NCBI GenBank assembly: GCA_958295535.1
Contig: OY282356.1
Location: 5,976-69,975 of the forward strand
DNA from: Gemmatimonadota bacterium
GTDB lineage: Bacteria > Gemmatimonadota > Gemmatimonadetes > Palauibacterales > Palauibacteraceae
DNA: 64,000 nt
Reading direction: 5' to 3'
Shown: positions 4,549-32,418 of the stretch, piece by piece
Position numbering within the stretch: the stretch's first letter is position 1
Layout: every line of letters starts with the position of its first letter
Notes under the pieces: model-generated
Told to the model about the DNA's origin: nothing
Seen by the model: the letters and a program-made list of their open reading frames with translations, nothing else
Databases searched by the model: none
Translations under genes and position numbers: made by a program

Positions 4549-7500
4549 ATGTTAGTTCATTTGTCAGCGCGGTGGAAGCGTGGCAGCACGCTGGCCGCCG
4601 TTGCGATAGGCGGCTGGCTCTTTATCGGAGCGGCGCCGCTGGCAGCCCAGGGCGCGATCACGGGCACCGTGACCGATGCGGAGTCGCTGCAGCCCGTGGC
4701 GGGCGCGCAAGTGTTCGTCCAGGGTACGGTCATCGGCGGGCTCACGGGCCTCCGGGGCGCCTACCGTCTGGAAGGCGTGCCGGCAGGCGAGCAGACCGTG
4801 CTCGTGCGCCTGATCGGCTACCGCGAGGTGTCGCAGACCGTAACCGTCACGTCTGGCCAAGTTGTCACGGCGGACTTCTCGGTGGAGCAGACAGCTTTAC
4901 GACTGCAAGAACTTGTGGTTACCGGCGTCGTGGGAGAGACCCCGCAAGTAAAGTTGCCATTCACGGTGGATCGTCTGAATGTGGCCGACCTTCCCAACCC
5001 GTCGTCCGACGTCTCGTCGTTGCTCGCAGCACGGTCGGCGGGCGTGTCGGTCATATCCGGAAGCGGCCAGCCCGGCGCCTCGTCGTCGATCCAGCTGCGT
5101 GGCCCGACCTCCTTCAACCGGGGGTCATCTCCTCTGATCGTCATTGACGGCGTTATTTCCGGCGGCTCGCTTTCCGACATCGCGACCCACGATGTGGACC
5201 ACATCGAGATGGTCAAGGGCGCCGCGGCAGCGTCGCTCTATGGCTCTCGCGCTCAGAACGGCGTTATTCAGATAACCACGAAGCGCGGATCGACTCTGCA
5301 GACGAATTCGGTCAACGTCACCGCGCGCGGCGAGTTCGGCATGAGCCAGCTGGTAGGCAATATCGGTCTAGTGCGCTCGCACCCCTTCACGATGAACGAA
5401 GCCCGAACCAAGTTCGTCGACAACGAAGGCAACGAGGTCGACTTCGGCGACTTGAACCGTCCTGGCTTCGGCTCGGCGGTTCTCTACAACCAGATCAAGC
5501 CGGGCACCCCGGCTACGCCTACCACCGCTTTCGCCAACCAGGCGTTTCCGAACGAGCTGTTCGACCACATGGACACGTTCTTCGATCCGGGTCAGACGCT
5601 GGACATCTACGGTTCGGTCACGGGCCGTTTCGGCGAGTCGAGCTACCGGGTCAGCGCCAACCAGTACCAGGAGGCTGGCGTAATCAAGTGCTCGGTGTGC
5701 ATCAGTAACCTTGCCACTCTCAACGCGGACCGCGTCAGCAACGACTTGAGGCCCTTCAACGTTACGCTTCCGCAGGACGACGGGTACAACCGCCAGAATG
5801 TCCGGCTTAACGTCGATACGCGCTTCGGAGATATCGATGTCGCGGCGAGCGGCTTCTATTCGCGCAATCGGCAGGACGACAAGGCAGTCTCGACGGGCGC
5901 CTTCTCGCGCCTCACTTTCATGTCCCCCGCACTCGACCTGACGAAGATCGATCCGACCGACGGTTATCCGGAGATCAACGCGGATCCGCAGTCGATCGAG
6001 CCGAATCCGCTCTATCTGCTGGCTGTGAACACGAGCTACGACAAGCGAACGCGGACGATGGGCGCGGCGGATCTCAACTTCCAGCCTGCGGGAATCGACT
6101 GGTTGACTTTGGAAGCCAACGCCTCGTTCGACCGGACGGACTTCTGGGACACCAGCCTACGGCCAAAGAACGAGAAGGCGGTCGGCGGCGGCGGTTCCGC
6201 CAACTTCACCGGCGGCTCGCTGAGGGAGTTCAACTCCGCCCGCGAGGCGATCAACGCCTCTGCGACGGCGGGGGTCAGCAAGGTGTTCATGGATGGCGCC
6301 GTCACCTTCCGTGCCAAGGCGCGCTACCTGATCGAGAGTCAGGACTACGAGAGCAACGGCGTCTTCGGCTCCGAGTTCTCCGTCCAGGACGTGCCCAACT
6401 TTGCAGCTATCTCGGGCGACCAGGTCGGCAATAACAGCGTCAGCCAAGTCAAGGCCGAGGGTCTATTCGGCATCGTGAGCGCCGATTACAAGGGCCGCTA
6501 TATCGTGGACGGTCTGGTGCGTCGCGACGGTTCCTCGCTCTTCGGGGCCGACGAACGGTGGCAGACGTACTATCGGGGTTCGGTGGCGTGGCGGGTGTCG
6601 CAGGAAGATTTCTGGAACATTGACGCCATCGACGAGATGAAGTTCCGCTTCTCGCTGGGAACCGCCGGGGGACGTCCTGGCTTCAGCTACCAGTACGAGA
6701 CATTTGGCGTTTCGACGGGTTCGATCTTCCCGATCAACCTTGGCAACAGGAATCTCAAGCCCGAGTTCACGACGGAACGCGAGGCAGGTCTCAACTTCGT
6801 GTTCCTGGACAATATTGGTCTCGAGCTGACCTACGCATGGCAGGATACGGAAGGACAGCTTCTTCAGGCTCCGCAGCCCGCCTATGTCGGATTCTCGAGA
6901 CAGTGGCAGAACGCGGGGAAGATCAAGGCTTCCACATACGAGGCATCTCTACGCTACGCGGCTATCGACAACCGCGATGTCGGATTGCAGTTCCGGCTCA
7001 ACTGGGACCGCACGCAGAGCGAGGTCGAGCGGCTGGATATTCCTCCCTTCCAGAGCGGCAACTTCTATTACGCGTCAGGTCGCGTATTCGGCGAGATGTG
7101 GGGCGAGGTCTGGGCCTCCAGCTGCTCTGACCTGACGAACGAATTGACCCAGATGTCCCAGGCGGATTGTGCGGCCAACTTCCAGGTCAACGATGATGGC
7201 TTGCTAGTCTATACGGGTTCCGGGAATGCCTATACCGAGGGATTCAGCAAGGCTCTCTGGGGGACGGAGGGTACGGTGGTCGCCGGCGGAGACTCGACGA
7301 CGTACGCCTGGGGCCTCCCGATCAAGGTGTCGGACTACTCGCCGGTCTGTAAGGCCCAGTATCCCACCGACTATATGGACAAGTGCACGGCCTCGCAGTA
7401 TCTGCCGTTCGGTAACAACACTCCGGACTTCCAGGCTTCGTTCTTCACCACCTTCCGGTACAAGGGCTTCAACTTTAACGGTCTCCTTGAGACACGGGTC

Positions 7501-10438: not shown

Positions 10439-10539
10439 AACCAATCGACCCGTGCATTAGCGGGGTGTCTGGACGGCCGCAGCCGAGGCGCCGGGACGGC
10501 CGCAGCCGGCTCGGACATCCCGATTCTCGCTGGCGGGCC

Positions 10540-11028
10540 GTGGCCATCGGCATGGGGTCAAATGTGCGGCCCCGACTCGGTTATCTGCGCCAGGCAGCCC
10601 GCCGTCTAGGAAACAAGATCCTGGCAGGCGCCCGCTTCTCCGGAGTCTACGAGAGCGCTCCGGCGCACGGAGCGGATCCGCCCGACTACCTCAACGCCTG
10701 CTGCGTAGGGTGGACGCAGAGCGGCGCTCGCCACCTGCTGGAAACTTTCAAGGAGATGGAAGTGCGGGCGGGCCGCGATCTGTGCGCGCCTCGGCTGTCG
10801 CCGCGACCCCTTGATCTCGATGTCCTGCTATATGGGGACGAAGTCGTTGCGGAGCGAGATCTCGCGATCCCGCATCCATCGCTGGCGGAGCGGCCATTCG
10901 TCGTCTTGCCTCTCGCGGAGATTGCCGGCGGGTGGCGACACCCGGTTCTCGGCTGCGCAATTGTAGATTTGGCAGCCGGCGCGGACCGCACAGGCGTGAA
11001 GGCTACGCAGCTGCGGGTGGAGCGCTGA
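10540..11028 (+). CDS. folK: 2-amino-4-hydroxy-6-hydroxymethyldihydropteridine pyrophosphokinase (HPPK)
   Basis: 'AIGMGSNV...' HPPK N-terminus and core 'PDYLNACCVGW...PRPLDLDVLLYGDEVV...ERPFVVLPLAEIAGGWRHP'. Start GTG 10540 preferred over track start 10465. Confidence 0.78.
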   Translation: MAIGMGSNVRPRLGYLRQAARRLGNKILAGARFSGVYESAPAHGADPPDYLNACCVGWTQSGARHLLETFKEMEVRAGRDLCAPRLSPRPLDLDVLLYGDEVVAERDLAIPHPSLAERPFVVLPLAEIAGGWRHPVLGCAIVDLAAGADRTGVKATQLRVER

Positions 11029-11042
11029 TTCGCGCGTTCGAT

Positions 11043-12161
11043 GTGCAGATTTCCGGTGCGGAAGCGTATCCGGTTTACATGGCCCCGGGGCTGCTGGCGA
11101 ACGCGGCGTCGGTCTGTCTACGGGCTGCGCCGGCGACCCGCTACGCAATCATCGCGGATTCCGGCGTGGCGAAGCTGTATGGACGAGCGCTCCTCTCGAG
11201 CTTCGGGGAAGCGGGCGCCGGAGCTGATCTGTACGACTTCCCCGCAGGCGAAGGGAGCAAGAGCAGAGAGCAGTGGGCCTCGTTGAGCGACCGCATGCTC
11301 CAGGACGGAGTCGGCCGCGATGCGGCCGTCGTGGCGCTCGGCGGCGGGGTCACCGGCGACCTCGCGGGCTTCGTGGCCGCTACCTACATGCGGGGCATTC
11401 CTCTTGTGCAGGTTCCCACGACATTGCTGGCCATGCTGGATAGCTCGGTAGGCGGGAAGACGGGTGTCGACACGTCGTGGGGAAAGAATCTGATCGGCGC
11501 CTTCCACCACCCGTCGGCGGTTCTCATCGATCCGGCCGCGCTCGGGACGCTGCCGCGCGAACAGCGGTGCGCCGGTCTGGCGGAGGCCGTCAAGACGGCG
11601 GCTATTCTGGATGCGAAGCTGTGGCGGTGGATCGAGGCGCGCGCGGAAGGATTGACGAGGGGCGACGCGGCGCTTGCGACCGAGGTCATAGAACGGGTGG
11701 CCAGGCACAAGGCGGCGGTCGTTTCTGCCGATCCGGCGGAACGAGGCCGCCGGGAAATCCTCAATTTCGGCCACACCGTGGGACACGCGCTGGAGGCGCT
11801 CGGGGGTTACGAGCTCCTGCACGGCGAGGCTGTGGCCGCCGGGATGAGGGTCGAAGCCAGGCTCGGCGAGCTTCTCGGGGTCACGGAGAATGGGACGGCG
11901 ATCGAGGTGTCCCGAGCGCTGGAAGCTTGCGGTCTCGGCGCAATCTGGGAAGCGGAGCGGCATCCGAATGAAGTCCGCGAAGCGTTGGCCAGGGACAAGA
12001 AGAGCCGGGATGCCCGCGTCCGCTGCGTTCTGTTGGCACGGATCGGCAAGGTTGCGACGGGTCCGGACGGGGGTTCCTGCTTCCCGCTTGGCGAGGACGA
12101 GCTGGGCGAGCCGCTCGAGGAGGCGATGCTTTCTCGCGAGTCGGCTCGGTTGCGGCACTAG
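11043..12161 (+). CDS. aroB: 3-dehydroquinate synthase
   Basis: GGGVTGDLAGF...VPTTLLAMLDSSVGGKTGVD...NLIGAFHHP motifs. The track ORF begins at 10932 inside folK. GTG 11043 (VQISGAEAYPV...) matches the DHQS N-terminus. Confidence 0.85.
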   Translation: MQISGAEAYPVYMAPGLLANAASVCLRAAPATRYAIIADSGVAKLYGRALLSSFGEAGAGADLYDFPAGEGSKSREQWASLSDRMLQDGVGRDAAVVALGGGVTGDLAGFVAATYMRGIPLVQVPTTLLAMLDSSVGGKTGVDTSWGKNLIGAFHHPSAVLIDPAALGTLPREQRCAGLAEAVKTAAILDAKLWRWIEARAEGLTRGDAALATEVIERVARHKAAVVSADPAERGRREILNFGHTVGHALEALGGYELLHGEAVAAGMRVEARLGELLGVTENGTAIEVSRALEACGLGAIWEAERHPNEVREALARDKKSRDARVRCVLLARIGKVATGPDGGSCFPLGEDELGEPLEEAMLSRESARLRH

Positions 12162-12325
12162 GCGCCGACACGGCGCGAATGAACCGGCACGGCGCCACGA
12201 AAGCAAGTCGGCGTGGCCGCGGAAGCAGGCCGACGCGCCCGCGCCGAACGACGCGAATGAGTCGACGCGGCGGTGCCGATACTCCTCGCCGGGGAGTAGC
12301 GTAGTTGCGAAGTAGTTGCGAAATG

Positions 12326-12390
12326 TCGCAAGAGCTGCGATGATTCGTCGCAAGAGCTGCGACGATCGTCGGAAGAGTTGCTGGCATTCG
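12326..12390. repeat. 3x ~21-nt imperfect tandem repeat (TCGCAAGAGCTGCGAYGATCG), preceded by 2x GTAGTTGCGAA, in the aroB-NYN intergenic region
   Basis: Seen directly in the sequence. Confidence 0.6.
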
Positions 12391-12643
12391 GGGGATAACT
12401 CCGCGGGGGCTGTCTTGCGAGGCTGCCCTGTCCGGGAGCCGTCGGCGGGATCGCCGGCGCGGGCCGGATGCTCGAAAACGGCGCTATGCGAGCGCCAAAC
12501 AGAGGGCGCACACTCGCGCCTACAACGAATGAGTGCGAAACGGCTGTACCTGTGAGACCGCTCTCGCCATCCCCTCCGGCACGACCGGGGGCGAGGAAGG
12601 GCGGACTCGGCGAGCCGTTCGCCACAACGAACGGAACGAGAGT

Positions 12644-15217
12644 ATGAACGATAGTTATGCGCGGGCGCCGCACAGCCGCCCGGCCACCCAAGCGGAGCGG
12701 GTCTCCGCCGCGCTCCTCATCGACTTCGACAATGTGACGATGGGAGTGCGATCCAATCTGGGCCAGGAACTCCGCAACTTCCTGGATTCGGACATCGTCA
12801 GGGGCAAAGTCGCGGTGCAGCGGGCCTATGCGGACTGGCGAAGGTATCCGCAGTACATCGAGCCTCTATCCGAATCGTCGATCGACCTGATCTTCGCCCC
12901 CGCCTACGGGTCGTCCAAGAAGAACGCGACCGATATAAGGCTCGCCATCGACGCGCTGGAGCTCGTCTTCATTCGGCCCGAGATCGGCACCTTCATTCTC
13001 CTCTCGGGAGACTCCGATTTCTCGAGCTTGGTGCTCAAGCTGAAGGAGTATGGGAAGTATGTGATCGGAGTGGGGCTTCGCGAGTCCACTTCGGACATCC
13101 TCGTGCAGAACTGTGACGAGTACTACAGCTACAACCGGCTCTCGGGACTGACCTCCGTAGATGAAGCCCAGACCGCGGAACACGACCCGTGGGAGCTGAC
13201 GAGTAGTGCGGTGGCGCGCATGGTCGAGCGCGGGGACGTGATGCGGTCCGACCGGCTCAAGCAGGTGATGCTGGAAATTGATCCGAAGTTCGACGAGAAG
13301 TCGGCCGGCTTCTCCAAGTTCAACCGGTTCTTGGGCGAGGCGGCGCAGCGCGAACTGATCGTGCTGCGCAAGGCGGAAAATGGCCAGTACGATATCGCGC
13401 CATTGCCCGGGAACGGGAAGACAGGGAGCGCGAAGAGTAGCGGCGACGTCCCCTCCTCGGAGAACGGAGAGGTCTCGCCGCGGCCCCGGAGCCGCCGGAC
13501 ACGCAGGGGCGGGCGCGGCGGGCGTTCCGCCGCGACCAAGCCGGAGACGAAGAAGGCGGATGCCGACGGAGCGCCCGCCGCCCTCGCGGCGGTCTTCGAC
13601 GAGCTGTCCAAGGTGGTCGCCAGCGTGTCTCGAGGAAGCGCGTCATCCGTCAGAGATTCCGTCGCTAAGCGGAAGCTGAGCGAGCTCAACCCGAGCTTTG
13701 ACGAGCGGGCTTTTGGCTTCAGCAAGTTCAGCCACTTCTTGCAGGCCGCACATGACGCAAAAGTGGTACGGATGACGCGCGACGAGCACTCTAACGTTTA
13801 CTTGGCGCCCGGAGACGACGGTGGCGCCGGTGCCGGCGAGCAGCGGGGCAGCGGCGCAGAAACGGTCCCAGCGAGGTCGGCGAAACGAGGCGGCTCGCGG
13901 GCCGCTGGTCGCCCTCGAGCGCCAAGTGGCGCAGAAACGGCCTCTGCTAGGTCGGCCAAGGGGACTGCCGACGAGCCCGCTGTCGAAGGCCGCTCCGCTT
14001 TTTCGGCCGCGGCCGAAGCTGCTCGCAAGACGTTGTTCGGGAGATTCCGTCGCGGACGGCGCGAGCAGGTGCCCGCCTCTCCGCCGTCTGCCGCGAAGAA
14101 GCCCTCTCCGCCCGAAGCTGCGAAGAAGCCACGAACCGACGCGACACCGGCGGCCTCTGGCACCGAGCAGCGCAAGGCGGCGGCCCGCCCGGCCAAGCGT
14201 CAGGCGGCGGCCCGGCAGGAGAGCGCTCCCGCTCCCAAGGCTGTCGGCCAGGGCGGACGGGAGCGGGCCGCACGGGCCGCCTCCGCGGGGGACCGGGGTC
14301 GCCCGGCCAAGCAGCAGGTGGCGGCGCAGCAGAAAGAGGACGCTCCCGCTCCCAAGGCAGTCGGCCGGGGCGGACAGGAGCAGGCCGCACGGACGGGGGT
14401 CCGGGGTCGACCGGCCAAGCGGCAGGCAGCGGCGCAGCAGAAAGAGGACGCTCCCGATCCCAAGGCAGTCGGCCAGGGCGGACAGGAGCGGGCCGCACGG
14501 ACGGCCGCCTCTGCGGGGGACCGACGCCGCCCGGCCAAGCGTCAGGCGGCGGCGCAGCAGAAGAACGCGCCCGCGCCCGGGACTAGCGCGCCCGCGCCCA
14601 GGGCTGAGGGTCGAAGTGAGCAAGAGAGTGCCCCCGCGCCCGGGGCTGCCGGCCGCCGCCGGAGTGCCCGGCAACGAGACCAGGCTCCCGCGGCTCCCGC
14701 TGCCGATCGGCAGGAGGTTGCCAAGGAGCCGAGCCGCCGGGCGCCGTCCGCGCCGGGACAGCCCGAAGTCGCGCCCCGGCCACGCGGTCCGGCCACGCTC
14801 GGGCGCTTTCGCTCGGGGTCGCGCGGTCGCAAGCCCGCGCCGCAGGACGCCGCCCGCGCCGCCGCGCCTACCAGGAGCAGCGAGCCGGACCCTGCCGCCA
14901 AGACGACTTCGGAGAAGACGCGGGCATCCGGTGGCCAAAGCGCAGCGAAACGATCGGCCCCGGCGCGGGCGGCGGCGCCAGCGACAGGTGGCGAGCGGGC
15001 CGCCCGGCGGGACGGGAAAGCCGCCGCGGGACCGGTCACGCACATGGTCCGCAACTATCCGGGCGTCGGGAAGCGCACTGCGGAGCGACTCTACGAGCAC
15101 TTTGGCGAAGATGTCTTCCAAGTCATCGACTCTGCCCCGGAACGACTTGTCCAGGTCCTCTCCGCGGGACGGGCCAAGATAGTCGTGCAGGCTCGGGAGG
15201 CCGAGCGCGAGAGCTGA
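12644..15217 (+). CDS. NYN-domain (PIN-like RNase) + 2x OST-HTH/LOTUS + low-complexity ~40-aa tandem-repeat linker + C-terminal helix-hairpin-helix protein
   Basis: N-terminus 'LIDFDNV...IFAPAYGSSKKNATDIRLAIDALEL...ILLSGDSDFSSLVLKLKEYGKYVIGVG' is the NYN/LabA signature. Two 'D/EPKFDEKSAGFSKFNRFL'-type OST-HTH units. ~3.5 copies of PAKRQAAAQQKEDAPAPKAVGQGGQERAAR. C-terminus 'NYPGVGKRTAERLYEHFGEDVF' is HhH-like. Confidence 0.72.
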   Translation: MNDSYARAPHSRPATQAERVSAALLIDFDNVTMGVRSNLGQELRNFLDSDIVRGKVAVQRAYADWRRYPQYIEPLSESSIDLIFAPAYGSSKKNATDIRLAIDALELVFIRPEIGTFILLSGDSDFSSLVLKLKEYGKYVIGVGLRESTSDILVQNCDEYYSYNRLSGLTSVDEAQTAEHDPWELTSSAVARMVERGDVMRSDRLKQVMLEIDPKFDEKSAGFSKFNRFLGEAAQRELIVLRKAENGQYDIAPLPGNGKTGSAKSSGDVPSSENGEVSPRPRSRRTRRGGRGGRSAATKPETKKADADGAPAALAAVFDELSKVVASVSRGSASSVRDSVAKRKLSELNPSFDERAFGFSKFSHFLQAAHDAKVVRMTRDEHSNVYLAPGDDGGAGAGEQRGSGAETVPARSAKRGGSRAAGRPRAPSGAETASARSAKGTADEPAVEGRSAFSAAAEAARKTLFGRFRRGRREQVPASPPSAAKKPSPPEAAKKPRTDATPAASGTEQRKAAARPAKRQAAARQESAPAPKAVGQGGRERAARAASAGDRGRPAKQQVAAQQKEDAPAPKAVGRGGQEQAARTGVRGRPAKRQAAAQQKEDAPDPKAVGQGGQERAARTAASAGDRRRPAKRQAAAQQKNAPAPGTSAPAPRAEGRSEQESAPAPGAAGRRRSARQRDQAPAAPAADRQEVAKEPSRRAPSAPGQPEVAPRPRGPATLGRFRSGSRGRKPAPQDAARAAAPTRSSEPDPAAKTTSEKTRASGGQSAAKRSAPARAAAPATGGERAARRDGKAAAGPVTHMVRNYPGVGKRTAERLYEHFGEDVFQVIDSAPERLVQVLSAGRAKIVVQAREAERES
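14185..14580 (+). repeat. In-frame ~120-nt tandem repeats (about 3.5 copies) inside the NYN/OST-HTH gene
   Basis: Repeating cggccaagcgtcaggcggcggc...gctcccgctcccaaggc...ggccgcacgg units. Confidence 0.7.
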
Positions 15218-15226
15218 GTTCGAGAG

Positions 15227-15901
15227 GTGGCTGCGCGCCGCACGGATCCAAAGGGAGAGCGGTTGACGCCGGACCTCCGCGCAGATGAACAGGATGACCG
15301 TGGACGCGCTCGACATTCGCCGGGCGCCGAGGTTCTGTCGCCGGACTTCTTCGACCGTCCGGCGGCGGCCGTCGCCCGCGCGCTGCTCGGGTGCGCCATT
15401 CACTCGGAGTGCGAGGGCGAACGAACGGCCGGACGAATCGTAGAGACGGAAGCCTACACAGGCCCCGAGGACGATGCTTGCCACGCGGCGGAGCGGACTG
15501 GCCGCACCAGTCGCAACTCGCCCCTCTTCGGCCCGCCGGGCACCGCCTACATTCATTGCAACTACGGGATTCACTGGCTGTTCAACGTGGTGACGGGACC
15601 CGAGGGCTTCCCCTCTGGCGTGCTCGTCCGGGCCGTCGAGCCGGTCGATGGCGTAGATGTCATGCGTCGTCGCCGCCGCCGCCGAGACCTGACCAACGGG
15701 CCCGCTCGCCTCGCGCAGGCGCTCGGGATCGGTCCTGGCTTGCAGGGCCATCCGCTGGATCGCCGGCCGCTCACGCTGCGCTCCGGCGCCCCGGTCCCCG
15801 ACGGGGAGACAGAAGTCACGACACGTGTCGGAATATCGCGCGCGGTGGACAGACCGCTCAGGTTCTACGATCGTCGAAGCCGGTGGATCTCCAAGCGCTG
15901 A
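15227..15901 (+). CDS. mpg: DNA-3-methyladenine glycosylase (Mpg/AAG family)
   Basis: 'FFDRPAAAVARALLGC...ETEAYTGPEDDACHA...NSPLFGPPGTAYIHCNYGIHWLFNVVTGPEG...VLVRAVEP' matches the Mpg family. Starts 10 nt after the NYN gene stop. Confidence 0.8.
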   Translation: MAARRTDPKGERLTPDLRADEQDDRGRARHSPGAEVLSPDFFDRPAAAVARALLGCAIHSECEGERTAGRIVETEAYTGPEDDACHAAERTGRTSRNSPLFGPPGTAYIHCNYGIHWLFNVVTGPEGFPSGVLVRAVEPVDGVDVMRRRRRRRDLTNGPARLAQALGIGPGLQGHPLDRRPLTLRSGAPVPDGETEVTTRVGISRAVDRPLRFYDRRSRWISKR

Positions 15902-19302: not shown

Positions 19303-19332
19303 GTGACTGACGAGCAACCTCCAGGCGCGTGA
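19303..19332 (+). other. 9-codon uORF (MTDEQPPGA) created by duplication of the helicase start region; its stop overlaps the helicase GTG start (GTGA)
   Basis: Direct repeat gtgactgacgagc at 19303-19315 and 19329-19341. Confidence 0.4.
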
Positions 19333-20531
19333 CTGACGAGCGCCGCTCCTTCGCCCAACTTGGTCTCGTTCCCGCCCTCGTCGAGGTCGTCGAGCGGGCC
19401 GGGTACCGATGGCCCACGGAAATACAGTGCCAAGCCATCCCGGTTATCCTCTCGGGGCGCGACGTTCTCGGGATGGCGCCGACCGGAACCGGCAAGACGG
19501 CGGCCTTCGCCCTGCCGATCGTGCAGCGTCTCTCCATGTCGGAATCGTTGTCCGCCCCCCGGGCGCTCGTGATCACGCCGACGCGCGAACTCGCTCAGCA
19601 GATCGCGGCGGCCACTACATCCTACGGCTCGACCTCCTCGATCGAGTGCGTCCTTGTACACGGCGGAACCCCGCTCGGTCCGGAAAGGGAAGAGCTGGAG
19701 TTCGGTTGCGATGTGCTGGTCGCCACGCCGGGACGTCTTCTCGACCATCTGGGCAGGGGGAACGCCGACCTTTCGCGTATCGAATCGCTTGTTCTGGATG
19801 AAGCCGACAGAATGCTGGACATGGGGTTCATCGACGACGTGAAGGAAATCGTCGCGCGCACGTCTTCGAGCAGGCAGACCTTGCTCTTCTCGGCGACCAT
19901 GCCCGACGGCGTCCGGTATCTCGCCAGCGAGCTGATGACCGATGCCGAAGAGGTGCGGATCGGATACGAGAGGGCGGCGGAGGGGATCCGGCACGTGCTG
20001 CATCCGGTCGACTGGTGGAGGAAGCACTCTCTCTTGCGCCACCTGCTTGGGGAGTGGGCGGATGGGCAGGTGCTCGTGTTCACCCGGACGCGAGACACTA
20101 CGACCTACCTGGCCGGCTACCTGCGCGACCGGGAAGTCTCGGTCGGGTCGCTGCACGGGGGCAAGCGGCAGGAGGAGCGCGACCGGGCGTTGCGCCGCTT
20201 CCGAGAAGGAGCGTCTCGCGTGCTGGTCGCGACGAATGTGGCGGCGAGAGGTCTCGACATTCGCGGCATTCGTCATGTCGTGAACTTCGATGTGCCGGAG
20301 GACCCGAGGGACTATGTGCACCGCGTGGGCCGAACCGCTCGCGGCGACATGGACGGCGATGCGGTGACGCTGATGTCGCCGAGCGACTGGGTCGAAATCA
20401 GGGGTATCGAAGGGCTCTTGGGAGAGAGCATCGAGCGCCGGGTGGTGCCGGGGTTCGAATCCGAAGCTGCAGAACCGGAGCCTGCGCGGAAGTCCCGGCA
20501 GGGGCAGGGGAGCGTTCGGGGGCGGAGGTAA
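19329..20531 (+). CDS. DEAD-box ATP-dependent RNA helicase
   Basis: Q motif, AxTGTGKT (motif I), DEAD (VLDEADRMLDMGF), SAT, HRVGRTAR. Confidence 0.9.
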   Translation: MTDERRSFAQLGLVPALVEVVERAGYRWPTEIQCQAIPVILSGRDVLGMAPTGTGKTAAFALPIVQRLSMSESLSAPRALVITPTRELAQQIAAATTSYGSTSSIECVLVHGGTPLGPEREELEFGCDVLVATPGRLLDHLGRGNADLSRIESLVLDEADRMLDMGFIDDVKEIVARTSSSRQTLLFSATMPDGVRYLASELMTDAEEVRIGYERAAEGIRHVLHPVDWWRKHSLLRHLLGEWADGQVLVFTRTRDTTTYLAGYLRDREVSVGSLHGGKRQEERDRALRRFREGASRVLVATNVAARGLDIRGIRHVVNFDVPEDPRDYVHRVGRTARGDMDGDAVTLMSPSDWVEIRGIEGLLGESIERRVVPGFESEAAEPEPARKSRQGQGSVRGRR

Positions 20532-30567: not shown

Positions 30568-32418
30568 ATGTCCACCGGCCGTCCGAGCTCTTCCAGTCCG
30601 CTGCCGGACGACTACCGTCCCGGCACCCTGGCGGAATTGTTCCTTGACGGTCTGTCGCGGCCCCGCGATGACGCGATCCTCTCGCGCGAGCCGGACGGCA
30701 GCTGGACATCCGTCTCCTCCGATGAAGCCGGCCGGCGCGTACGAGCCATCGCGCTGGGGCTACGGGCCGCGGGCTTCGGGCCCGGCGACCGGGTAGCGAT
30801 CCTCTCGCATAGCCGTCCCGAGTGGGCGCTGGCCGACTGGGGCATCATCATGGCCCGGCTGGCATCGGTGCCCGTCTACCCGGTGCTGCCCGCCGGCCAG
30901 ATCGGCTACATACTCGCCGACTCCGGTGCGCGCGCGGTATTCGTCGAGGATCAGGAACAGCTGGACAAAGTGGCGCAAGCGAAGGACGATCTTCCCGATC
31001 TCGAGCTGGCGATCGCCTTCGAGAGCGTCGAGCCGGCCGATGTCCCCGGTCTGACCACAGTCGGACTTGACGACTTTTGCCAACGGGGCGGCTCCGCCCC
31101 CGAAGAAATGGCCTCCACCTACGAGTCGTTCGCTCGGGAGACCGAGCCGGAAGACTTGGCGACGGTCATCTACACCTCCGGCACGACGGGCGACCCGAAG
31201 GGCGTCATGCTCACCCACGCCAACTTCCACTCGAACGCCGAGCTGGCCGTGCGCGTCTTTCCGCTCGACCGGCACGATGTGTTCCTCTCGATTCTGCCGC
31301 TTGCGCACGTGTTCCAGCGGACGGTCGGCCACTACATAATGTGGCGCGTCGGCATCACCGTCGCGTACGCCGAGTCGCCCAACACTATCGCCCGCGACCT
31401 CGGCGAAGTCTCTCCGACGATCATGGCTGCCGTGCCGCGCGTGTTCGAGAAGGTTCAGGAGAGGGCTCGTACGGCGGCGCTCGAGGCGGGAGGCATCAAG
31501 GAGCGGATATTCGGATGGGCCCGGGATGTGGGCGAGCGGTGCGCTGCCGCGCTGCTCGAAGGGCGGCGGCCCGGGATCGTTCTCCGCTGCCAGGCCGCCG
31601 TTGCGGACCGCTTGGTCTTTTCCAAGCTGCGCGCACGAACCGGAGGCAGAGTCCGGTACTTCGTGAGTGGCGGCGCGCCGCTCGCGCCCTCCGTGGGCCT
31701 CTTCTTCTTCGCCGCGAAGCTGCCCATCATCGAGGGCTACGGTCTCACGGAGACTTCTCCCGTACTCACCGTAAACCCGGCGGATGCCATCCGGTTGGGC
31801 AGTGTCGGGCGACCCATCCCGGGCACGGAGCTCCGCATCGCGGAGGACGGGGAGGTGCTCGCGCGCGGTCCCCAGGTCATGGCGGGCTACTACGGCAAAC
31901 CGCGGCAGACGGCCGAGGTTATTGACGACGAGGGTTGGTTCAGCACCGGGGATGTGGGCGCGATCGACGAGGAAGGCTACCTCAGGATCACCGACCGAAA
32001 GAAGGACCTGCTGATCACCGCGTACGGCAAGAATATCGCGCCGCAGCCGGTCGAAGCCGAGATCAAACGGCACCCCTTCATCGCGGAGGTCGTGATGTTG
32101 GGAGACCAGCGCAAGTTCCCGATGGTCGTCGTGGTGCCGGACTTCGACGCCATCCGCCTGGCGCATCCGGAGATGGCCGAAGCGGCTGCCGGGCTGGACA
32201 TCACGCCGCGCATCCGGACTCTCGTGGAGCAGGCCGTGGAGCAAGGCAGCGCCCAATTCGCGAAGTACGAGCAGCCGCGGAAAGCGCTGGTCGTCCCTGG
32301 TCCCTTCACTATCGAGGGCGGGGAGCTGACCCCGACGCTCAAGGTGAAGCGCCGGGTCATCGAGAGCCGGTTCGCCGACGAGATCGACGCGTTGTACGAG
32401 CGGGCCGAAGGGTCGTGA
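30568..32418 (+). CDS. Long-chain-fatty-acid--CoA ligase (AMP-dependent synthetase/ligase)
   Basis: AMP-binding motif IYTSGTTGDPKGVMLTH, YGLTETS, GWFSTGDVG, K-terminal motif. ATG 30568 is 2 nt after the TPR gene stop. Confidence 0.88.
   Translation: MSTGRPSSSSPLPDDYRPGTLAELFLDGLSRPRDDAILSREPDGSWTSVSSDEAGRRVRAIALGLRAAGFGPGDRVAILSHSRPEWALADWGIIMARLASVPVYPVLPAGQIGYILADSGARAVFVEDQEQLDKVAQAKDDLPDLELAIAFESVEPADVPGLTTVGLDDFCQRGGSAPEEMASTYESFARETEPEDLATVIYTSGTTGDPKGVMLTHANFHSNAELAVRVFPLDRHDVFLSILPLAHVFQRTVGHYIMWRVGITVAYAESPNTIARDLGEVSPTIMAAVPRVFEKVQERARTAALEAGGIKERIFGWARDVGERCAAALLEGRRPGIVLRCQAAVADRLVFSKLRARTGGRVRYFVSGGAPLAPSVGLFFFAAKLPIIEGYGLTETSPVLTVNPADAIRLGSVGRPIPGTELRIAEDGEVLARGPQVMAGYYGKPRQTAEVIDDEGWFSTGDVGAIDEEGYLRITDRKKDLLITAYGKNIAPQPVEAEIKRHPFIAEVVMLGDQRKFPMVVVVPDFDAIRLAHPEMAEAAAGLDITPRIRTLVEQAVEQGSAQFAKYEQPRKALVVPGPFTIEGGELTPTLKVKRRVIESRFADEIDALYERAEGS

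Follow-up and report, generated by a model that had tools for sequence, protein, structure and literature searches.

The NYN-LOTUS-HhH protein and its family

The window analysed here is a 64,000-nucleotide stretch of contig OY282356.1 from a Gemmatimonadota bacterium of the Candidatus Palauibacter group (positions 5,976 to 69,975 of the forward strand), and all coordinates given below are counted from its first letter. At 12644-15217 on the plus strand, stop codon included, it carries the coding sequence of an 857-aa protein in which a NYN domain is followed by two LOTUS domains, a long disordered tail and a C-terminal helix-hairpin-helix (HhH) module. The next gene on the same strand is mpg, encoding a DNA-3-methyladenine glycosylase of the AAG/Mpg family (15227-15901). 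The open reading frame (ORF) of the NYN gene extends from 12533 to 15217, and translation from the ATG at 12644, which is the start codon kept in relatives as ATGAACGA, yields the 857 aa. A protein in the public collection, P0001 (from a 3.07-Mb contig), is identical to the product of the window gene.

We found that the NYN-LOTUS core is, by its sequence, a known and already annotated family. The earlier note on this DNA had described the domains as rarely found together and as no standard family, which proved wrong for this core: a NYN domain with one or two LOTUS domains is a stereotypic bacterial architecture defined in 2010 (PMC2848206) and repeated in a 2017 survey of the PIN superfamily that stresses that none of these proteins has been studied functionally (PMC5499597), and the window protein and its relatives already bear the database names 'NYN domain-containing protein', TIGR00288 family and LabA/DUF88. 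Both parts of the 2010 definition of bacterial LK-nuclease plus OST-HTH proteins are present, with NYN at aa 22-162 and LOTUS at aa ~180-255 and ~307-390. In contrast to this core, the HhH extension, the pairing with mpg and a structured 5' leader are not described in the literature that we searched.

More than 5600 homologues of the window protein were scored, the best of them 600-800 aa long, and at least 560 species genomes contain a relative, with the best 80 all belonging to Gemmatimonadota. An exhaustive search with the NYN domain and first LOTUS domain returned 6821 clusters at E≤1e-3, of which 491 reached E≤1e-30; the top 150 all represent the same orthologue family, with 52-85% identity over the two searched domains. 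Complete orthologues span Palauibacter, Longimicrobiales and Gemmatimonadales. The full NYN-LOTUS-HhH architecture was not seen outside Gemmatimonadota among the best 150 clusters or in both homology searches, in which NYN-LOTUS genes of other phyla were not sampled. An RRM was also sought in the 857-aa protein, with no Pfam match at E≤0.1.

NYN and LOTUS domains

The predicted nuclease domain is a LabA-type, PIN-like NYN domain at aa 22-162 (12707-13129, plus strand). It matched Pfam NYN (PF01936) at E=9.2e-26, scoring 91.5 bits against a cut-off of 24.2 and covering positions 2-143 of the 145-position profile, and a profile of the family's NYN domains aligned end to end with the LabA-type structure 2QIP (E=1.3e-9), placing LIDFDN, TDIRLAIDA and SGDSDF in register with the corresponding 2QIP motifs. 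The acidic motif residues D27/D29/N30, D97/D103 and D123/D125 are invariant or at least 90% conserved across 102 relatives. A 250-aa metagenomic protein, P0250, with NYN and one LOTUS domain and 52% identity, carries substitutions in these motifs (VDFGNV, SGNSDF) and may be an inactive paralogue or a degraded copy.

The full protein was modelled with AlphaFold using the 102-sequence alignment. The NYN core is the most conserved part of the protein, yet its predicted local distance difference test (pLDDT) score was 40-60, compared to ~96 for the LOTUS and HhH domains; the near-invariant alignment over the core is a likely reason for the low score. A structural search with the predicted model, in which the NYN region is of low confidence, gave no match to any NYN structure.

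Pfam OST-HTH (PF12872) matched two stretches of the protein (E=7.9e-10, 38.9 bits versus a cut-off of 23.8), and the AlphaFold model contains two winged-helix domains with a pLDDT of ~96, corresponding to LOTUS domain 1 at aa ~180-255 (13181-13408, plus strand) and LOTUS domain 2 at aa ~307-390 (13562-13813, plus strand), the latter including the best Pfam stretch at aa 342-382. The best matches of these domains among PDB structures in Foldseek were the LOTUS domain of TDRD7 (3rco, template-modelling (TM) score 0.77, root-mean-square deviation (rmsd) 1.8 Å), TDRD5 (3s93) and the bacterial proteins NE0665 (2kpm) and CV_0373 (2kzv). Between the two domains we read an Arg/Gly-rich, RGG-like linker at aa 280-294 (RPRSRRTRRGGRGGR; 13481-13525, plus strand), whose consensus 'SRxxRxRRGGRxR' is kept in the 102-sequence alignment. 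A single-sequence search of PDB sequences with LOTUS domain 1, made for a seed from outside the phylum, returned nothing significant.

The C-terminal HhH module

The protein ends in a predicted (HhH)2-like module at aa 795-857 (15026-15214, plus strand), which consists of one canonical hairpin (GVGKRTAE) and a degenerate second hairpin. The GVG at aa 807-809 is invariant, and the module is present in 71 of the 72 complete orthologues from species genomes, all of them Gemmatimonadota. The window sequence alone matched Pfam HHH_5 over aa 806-844 at E=0.051 for the full protein and E=0.00097 for the module (14.5-20 bits, where the cut-off is 27), and 38 of 41 orthologue modules matched HHH_5 at E≤0.1, the best at E=2.9e-6. 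When the modules were combined into a family profile, this aligned with the (HhH)2 domain of archaeal XPF at E=3e-6, followed by Topo V and RuvA. In NCBIfam, aa 805-850 matched the N-terminal HhH region of RecD2 (E=4e-5), and 10 of the 41 modules weakly matched the SAM fold of the 5_3_exonuc family (best E=0.0075).

Modelled separately, the module reached a pLDDT of 94, and in the full-protein model ~97. The model superposes on XPF, FAAP24, UvrC, RuvA, Hel308 and DisA with TM scores of 0.54-0.69 and rmsd values of 2.1-2.5 Å, although the Foldseek E-values for this 67-residue query were 0.48 or higher and thus not significant. By family profiles and structure prediction, the HhH identity is confirmed at the level of the family, while the window sequence on its own stays below the Pfam cut-off. 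The domain calls first made from the letters of the DNA, comprising NYN, two LOTUS domains, an HhH-like end and Mpg, were thus borne out by Pfam and NCBIfam, by profiles and by structure models.

A variable disordered tail

LOTUS domain 2 and the HhH module are separated by an intrinsically disordered, Ala/Arg/Pro/Gly-rich tail at aa 394-793 with a net charge of about +47 (13823-15022, plus strand), over which the AlphaFold model has a pLDDT below 50 and no secondary structure. The composition of aa 396-795 is 27% Ala, 15% Arg, 11% Pro, 10% Gly and 6% Lys, with 59 Arg versus 24 Lys, and its hydrophobicity is low (4%). A disordered linker at this place is present in all 69 orthologues measured and ranges from 57 to 399 aa, that of the window being the longest. 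Its charge is not conserved, since net charge per residue spans -0.13 to +0.15 across orthologues and in half of them the linker is not basic.

A tandem repeat array with a 108-nt period and 3.3 copies occupies aa 515-640 of the tail (14186-14562, plus strand; Tandem Repeats Finder score 499, 81% matches), which at the protein level corresponds to units of 38, 36 and 40 aa and a partial fourth. We found this 36-40-aa repeat in no orthologue; other lineages carry different short repeats. The tail also holds two conserved islands. Island 1, at aa 451-474 (SAFSAAAEAARKTLFGRFRRGRRE; 13994-14065, plus strand), reads 'SxxSAxxxxxRxxLGRFRRGS' as a consensus of alignment A3, where R467 and R469 are conserved to 90% or more, and a regular-expression survey confined it to closer relatives. 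Island 2, at aa 717-729 (ATLGRFRSGSRGR; 14792-14830, plus strand), was defined in an alignment of 16 relatives in which G720, R721 and S726 are invariant. The motif LGR[FY]R[RS]GSRG occurs in the Palauibacter clade and other closer relatives and is missing from the more distant half of the family.

One near-identical genome allowed a comparison within the closest relatives. Its protein, P0121 (872 aa, from another contig of 3.05 Mb), is identical to P0001 at 857 of 857 aligned residues, and the sole difference is a 15-aa insertion after aa 776 that duplicates the unit SGGQSAAKRSAPARA at aa 762-776 (14927-14971, plus strand), leaving the 3.3-copy array unchanged. This duplication may truly distinguish the two strains or may stem from how the genomes were assembled. 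The tail does change by gain or loss of repeats, but outside the 3.3-copy array.

These results alter the picture of the tail given in the earlier note. Its description as histone-H1-like and lysine-rich does not hold, with Lys at 6% versus Arg at 15%, no linker-histone Pfam match at E≤0.1 and a basic charge that is not conserved. A repeat of about 3.5 copies of ~40 aa does exist, at 3.3 copies of 36-40 aa, although the peptide quoted for it is only an approximate consensus. Variation in repeat number between strains, which had been expected, was not seen in the single near-identical genome.

In orthologues from Longimicrobium (P0167, P0200 and relatives; L084:5001-8336), which are 1000-1170 aa long, we observed that the HhH module is followed by a further tail, RGG-rich and in part acidic. 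These orthologues also carry a short motif, GRGRG...PSGPPxLLPGQV, three times, and this motif is absent from the window protein.

A structured leader upstream of the NYN gene

Directly upstream of the start codon lies a predicted structured 5' leader with two stem-loop domains (12554-12643, plus strand), supported by its minimum free energy and by covariation in a clade alignment. For 12554-12649 the minimum free energy was -45.5 kcal/mol (z = -3.62). Domain 1 of the window leader pairs a C-rich arm with a G-rich run; domain 2 includes a CCGTTCG/CGAACGG hairpin, and its 3' arm, GAGAGU, ends 1 nt before the AUG. Within the clade of the window, the leader is a diverged version with 20 consensus pairs, 6 of them compensatory.

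Homologous leaders that end at the NYN start were found in loci L023-L080 (e.g. L040:5919-6006). Across 34 lineages the leader contains, in order, a variable hairpin, a near-invariant G-rich run with GGAGG, an 8-bp stem, an A-rich spacer of 8-14 nt and the ATG. The 8-bp stem (TCTCGCG / YGCGAGA) closes a loop of 15-35 nt and was 94% paired, with compensatory changes at 5 of 8 pairs; none of 500 shuffles equalled it, and slid controls gave 32-59% pairing. A covariance model of the leader matched only before the NYN gene in the ~1 Mb searched, recovering loci on which it had not been trained and, weakly, the Palauibacter clade, with the window itself going undetected. Rfam gave only sub-threshold matches in the window and five loci, which we take as chance.

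The leader is a candidate element for translational control; that the nuclease regulates its own gene through it is, for now, a speculative idea. We considered whether the G-rich run might serve as a single-stranded target for the LOTUS domains, a proposal weakened by the predicted pairing of this run with the upstream C-rich arm.

Pairing with mpg and gene neighbourhood

The mpg ORF matched Pur_DNA_glyco (PF02245) at E=3.7e-60, with 202.8 bits against a cut-off of 27, and the NCBIfam models NF002003 (186.3 bits versus a cut-off of 182) and TIGR00567 (165.9 bits versus 116.35). In the window the two genes lie in one frame, and a 9-nt spacer separates the TGA of the NYN gene (15215-15217) from the GTG of mpg (15227). 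We surveyed the neighbourhood in 80 loci from species genomes, with a scorable subset that varies by gene, and found that mpg immediately follows the NYN gene, in the same orientation, in 59 of 64 scorable loci, and also in three of three loci from Longimicrobium and Gemmatimonas (L084-L086). Measured from the NYN stop, the Mpg domain begins at a median of 59 nt. Among the junctions compared with the window (including L001, L002, L007, L017 and L024), 11 loci have a 4-nt GTGA overlap of stop and start, and 19 loci, Palauibacter relatives among them, have CTGA in the mpg frame with no ATG, GTG or TTG nearby, which suggests a CTG start or a misplaced mpg start.

Other neighbours are as constant as mpg. 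Upstream of the NYN gene we found aroB in 58 of 60 loci and, directly upstream, a gene for an AMP-dependent ligase (AMP-binding plus AMP-binding_C, ~533 aa) in 60 of 65 loci (e.g. L001:4013-5839 and L085:3210-4811). The window has no upstream ligase gene, with a 483-nt gap in its place (12162-12643) in which no remnant of the gene was found; its sole counterpart in the window is a 29%-identical paralogue at 30745-32103. In L084-L086 the outer flanks have changed, with an inositol phosphatase gene replacing nhaC downstream and a UvrD-type helicase gene on the minus strand between aroB and the ligase-NYN-mpg unit (L084:617-2809, L085:661-2844, L086:910-3111), and the order ligase-NYN-mpg is kept, with a 4-nt overlap in L084. 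The pair is thus maintained where its outer flanks differ, so the NYN-mpg junction outlasts the surrounding synteny. This helicase, which puts a second DNA-repair gene beside the unit, was a neighbour in only 1 of the 65 scorable loci of the genome scan.

An operon linking a nuclease to base-excision repair had been proposed from the window alone. The gene arrangement behind this proposal is sound, the N-terminus of the upstream gene product being of a nuclease family and its adjacency to mpg being conserved, the reverse of the two outcomes that the proposal had set against itself. The functional tie of the NYN-LOTUS protein to base-excision repair, in contrast, is no more than a possibility. 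Three observations count against its necessity: the functionally unrelated aroB, AMP-dependent ligase and nhaC genes are also conserved neighbours, five genomes without mpg at this locus keep the full protein, including the HhH module, and three stand-alone NYN genes of other phyla lie beside no glycosylase gene.

As a weak control, we followed a divergent seed, P0226, which led to stand-alone NYN proteins without LOTUS domains outside the phylum; the three neighbourhoods retrieved are unrelated to that of the window gene and contain no glycosylase gene. No NYN-Mpg fusion was present among the listed homologues. After two of these stand-alone NYN genes we noted small overlapping ORFs of 78 and 143 aa (L082:4531-4767 and L083:4378-4809) that have no Pfam match and might be split-off partner domains.

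Farther from the pair, a DEAD-box RNA helicase gene lies at 19329-20531 on the plus strand, ~4 kb downstream of the NYN gene. We rejected this helicase as a conserved partner, since it neighbours the NYN gene in only 13 of 71 loci, all of them close relatives (the window and 12 others). On the upstream side, the ORFs of the folK-type HPPK gene (10465-11028) and of aroB (10932-12161) overlap by 97 nt when read from their first possible starts. The aroB ORF matches the 3-dehydroquinate synthase N-terminal domain only from aa 103 onwards, and the true aroB start is therefore probably further downstream.

Function of the window protein

We put the probability at roughly 55% that the window protein is the Gemmatimonadota orthologue of the bacterial 'MARF1-like' NYN-LOTUS nucleases and acts as a housekeeping, metal-dependent endoribonuclease. 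Its housekeeping character is supported by its fixed place among core genes (aroB and the folK-type HPPK gene), the 52-85% identity of the best 150 clusters over NYN and the first LOTUS domain, and its wide distribution. By analogy with characterised relatives, the NYN domain with its full conserved acidic set would cut single-stranded RNA, and the two LOTUS domains with the RGG-like linker between them may capture the substrates, probably G-rich or structured RNA. The flexible linker of variable length and charge would tether the (HhH)2 module, which might anchor the enzyme on a duplex backbone, either of nucleoid DNA or of double-stranded RNA, or might dimerise the enzyme as in XPF-family nucleases. 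Expression appears to be controlled at the mRNA level by the leader, which ends at the ribosome-binding region. The gene would share a transcript with mpg and, in many lineages, would probably also be coupled to it in translation.

Several points weigh against this assignment. The predicted strand-helix order of the NYN region fits a PIN-like fold, but confidence in the modelled core is low and the case for the fold comes only from profile comparisons. RNA is the presumed substrate by the example of eukaryotic MARF1 and from binding assays of LOTUS domains, and of the two bacterial LOTUS domains assayed against G-rich or G-quadruplex (G4) RNA, TP0894 binds and NE0665 shows no G4 RNA binding (PMC7498356). 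The close structural relatives of the HhH module are without exception DNA-binding domains of DNA-repair proteins, and the tight, long-lived coupling to a DNA glycosylase is unexplained by a role in RNA only. Finally, co-transcription with mpg, although very likely, is read from the spacing of the genes, and scans for promoters and terminators around the operon gave nothing above shuffle expectation.

The main alternative, though unlikely in our judgement, makes the protein a nuclease of DNA repair that acts together with Mpg. Once Mpg had excised an alkylated base, the NYN domain, kept at the DNA through the (HhH)2 module, would process an abasic site, a 5'-deoxyribose phosphate or a flap, and the operon would encode two steps of base-excision repair. 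FEN and related 5'-nucleases, in which a PIN-like domain is joined by a DNA-binding motif of HhH type, provide the analogy for such an enzyme. However, the HhH module of the window protein lies ~630 residues from the nuclease across a disordered linker, unlike the FEN core, and the resemblance of that module to the (HhH)2 domains of XPF, UvrC, FAAP24, RuvA and Hel308, together with the weak matches of some orthologue modules to the 5'-3' exonuclease SAM fold, has to be set beside LOTUS domains that bind RNA, with no preference for DNA G4 (PMC7498356), and a MARF1 NYN domain that is an RNase (PMC6217404). The gene arrangement can likewise be read both ways. The tightness and age of the NYN-mpg junction, with its GTGA overlaps and its retention in Longimicrobium and Gemmatimonas beside a different downstream neighbour, the UvrD-type helicase gene just upstream in those three deep lineages and a NYN-Udg4 (uracil-DNA glycosylase) operon noted in Gluconacetobacter (PMC5499597) favour a repair function; the equally conserved ligase and aroB neighbours, the five mpg-less loci that retain the whole protein, the three out-of-phylum NYN genes with no glycosylase beside them and the lack of a NYN-Mpg fusion among the listed homologues do not. 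A broader version, which we hold to be just as doubtful, has the NYN-LOTUS-HhH protein and Mpg as a functional pair, with a DNA-anchored nuclease acting at sites of alkylation damage and either processing Mpg intermediates or clearing RNA there (nascent transcripts, R-loops, G-rich structures or alkylated RNA). What keeps it alive is that the pair outlasts synteny, that the module resembles those of repair nucleases and that the NYN-Udg4 operon occurs in another phylum.

Another reading, improbable though given somewhat more credence than a repair function, treats the protein mainly as a scaffold, with the Arg-rich tail and its short motifs recruiting partners or RNA and driving assembly of a ribonucleoprotein (RNP) condensate or degradosome-like complex, in which NYN is the resident nuclease. 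A ~400-aa disordered tail of 4% hydrophobicity that is high in Arg, Gly, Pro and Ala would suit this role, as would its RGG-like stretches and two Arg-rich islands, the longer RGG-rich tails of Longimicrobium relatives (protein up to 1110 aa), the organisation of animal germ granules by proteins that combine LOTUS domains with disordered regions, and the downstream DEAD-box helicase gene. The features on which a scaffold would depend are poorly kept, however: linker length and charge are not conserved, and the more distant half of the family lacks the islands, so that a conserved scaffold would rest on very little. Outside the closest clade, moreover, the helicase gene does not lie nearby. We consider it very improbable that the protein is a toxin or an anti-phage defence nuclease for which the neighbouring genes are irrelevant. 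Toxins and defence systems do include proteins with PIN-like and NYN domains (PMC5499597), but neither the NYN-LOTUS protein nor Mpg had a PADLOC match at E≤0.01, and no antitoxin-like partner is present. Whereas defence genes evolve fast and are patchily distributed, this gene keeps one place among core metabolic genes throughout the phylum and is 52-85% identical in its catalytic region.

Bacterial NYN-LOTUS proteins are spread over nearly all the main bacterial lineages and are considered ancestral to the MARF1-type RNA decay factors of eukaryotes, but no function has been assigned to any of them. The window protein is among the most conserved proteins around its locus, with more than 50% identity over ~250 residues phylum-wide, which points to a core cellular role that could be approached in the cultured species Gemmatimonas aurantiaca and Longimicrobium terrae. 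With an Mpg partner of known activity and an added module predicted to bind duplexes, a coupling of RNA or DNA cleavage to alkylation repair becomes a testable hypothesis; if the two proteins do form a functional pair, this would be an unknown accessory step of base-excision repair derived from an RNase-type NYN domain, and the first function assigned to a bacterial NYN-LOTUS protein. The covariation-supported leader, absent from Rfam, is a candidate cis-regulatory RNA and possibly an autoregulatory target. Should these leads fail, the finding would be a routine, lineage-specific elaboration of a known annotated family.

Comparison with known systems

The individual parts of the window protein have counterparts in several well-known systems. 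In its nuclease domain, the protein belongs to the same NYN subfamily (NYN.COG1432) as Synechococcus LabA and Vibrio VPA0982, the source of structure 2QIP. These LabA-type proteins are single-domain proteins of ~165-190 aa, compared to the multidomain, 857-aa window protein, and LabA is known only genetically, through circadian feedback on KaiC (PMC5499597). Members of the FEN/5'-3' exonuclease family share with the window protein the combination of a PIN-superfamily nuclease and an HhH-type motif; their H3TH/HhH motif, however, lies inside the catalytic core, whereas the window HhH module is remote from a nuclease that belongs to the NYN branch.

For the C-terminal module, the comparison is with the (HhH)2 domains of the XPF/ERCC4 family, FAAP24, the UvrC C-terminus, RuvA domain II, Hel308 domain 5 and the RecD2 N-terminus, which share a five-helix module with a G-hydrophobic-G hairpin. 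Such modules of repair proteins bind the duplex backbone with no sequence preference and in XPF-family nucleases also dimerise. In contrast to these proteins, the window protein has its module tethered by a long disordered linker to an RNase-type NYN-LOTUS enzyme, and the second hairpin is degenerate. For the tail, the C-terminal scaffold of RNase E, which builds the degradosome and bacterial RNP bodies (BR-bodies), offers a functional analogy only, as a ribonuclease with a long disordered, Arg-rich tail and short conserved islands; the two tails have no sequence relationship, and the tail properties of the window family are not conserved.

MARF1 (limkain b1), which like the window protein combines a NYN nuclease domain with LOTUS domains, is by analogy the best functional model for it. 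Mouse MARF1 is a Mg/Mn-dependent endonuclease of single-stranded RNA that needs both the four aspartates of its NYN domain and its LOTUS domains (PMC6217404), and the acidic residues of the window NYN domain may correspond to those aspartates (D178/D215/D246/D272). With two RRM and eight LOTUS domains and no HhH in MARF1, compared to two LOTUS domains and no RRM here, the window protein is not a MARF1 orthologue, and the MARF1 NYN domain has been placed in a separate, eukaryote-specific cluster, NYN.1 (PMC5499597).

The closest system is the bacterial family of LK-nuclease (DUF88/NYN) plus OST-HTH proteins described in 2010 by Anantharaman, Zhang and Aravind and exemplified in later work by Treponema pallidum TP0894 and Nitrosomonas europaea NE0665, of which the window protein is a member by all sequence criteria (PMC2848206). 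These proteins were predicted to be standalone RNA-degrading enzymes whose LOTUS domains recruit the substrate, and the survey recorded no conserved linkage to known RNA-processing systems and did not mention a fusion to HhH (PMC2848206). To that family, the lineage of the window adds a disordered linker of 57-399 aa, a conserved (HhH)2-like module, an mpg partner and a structured leader.

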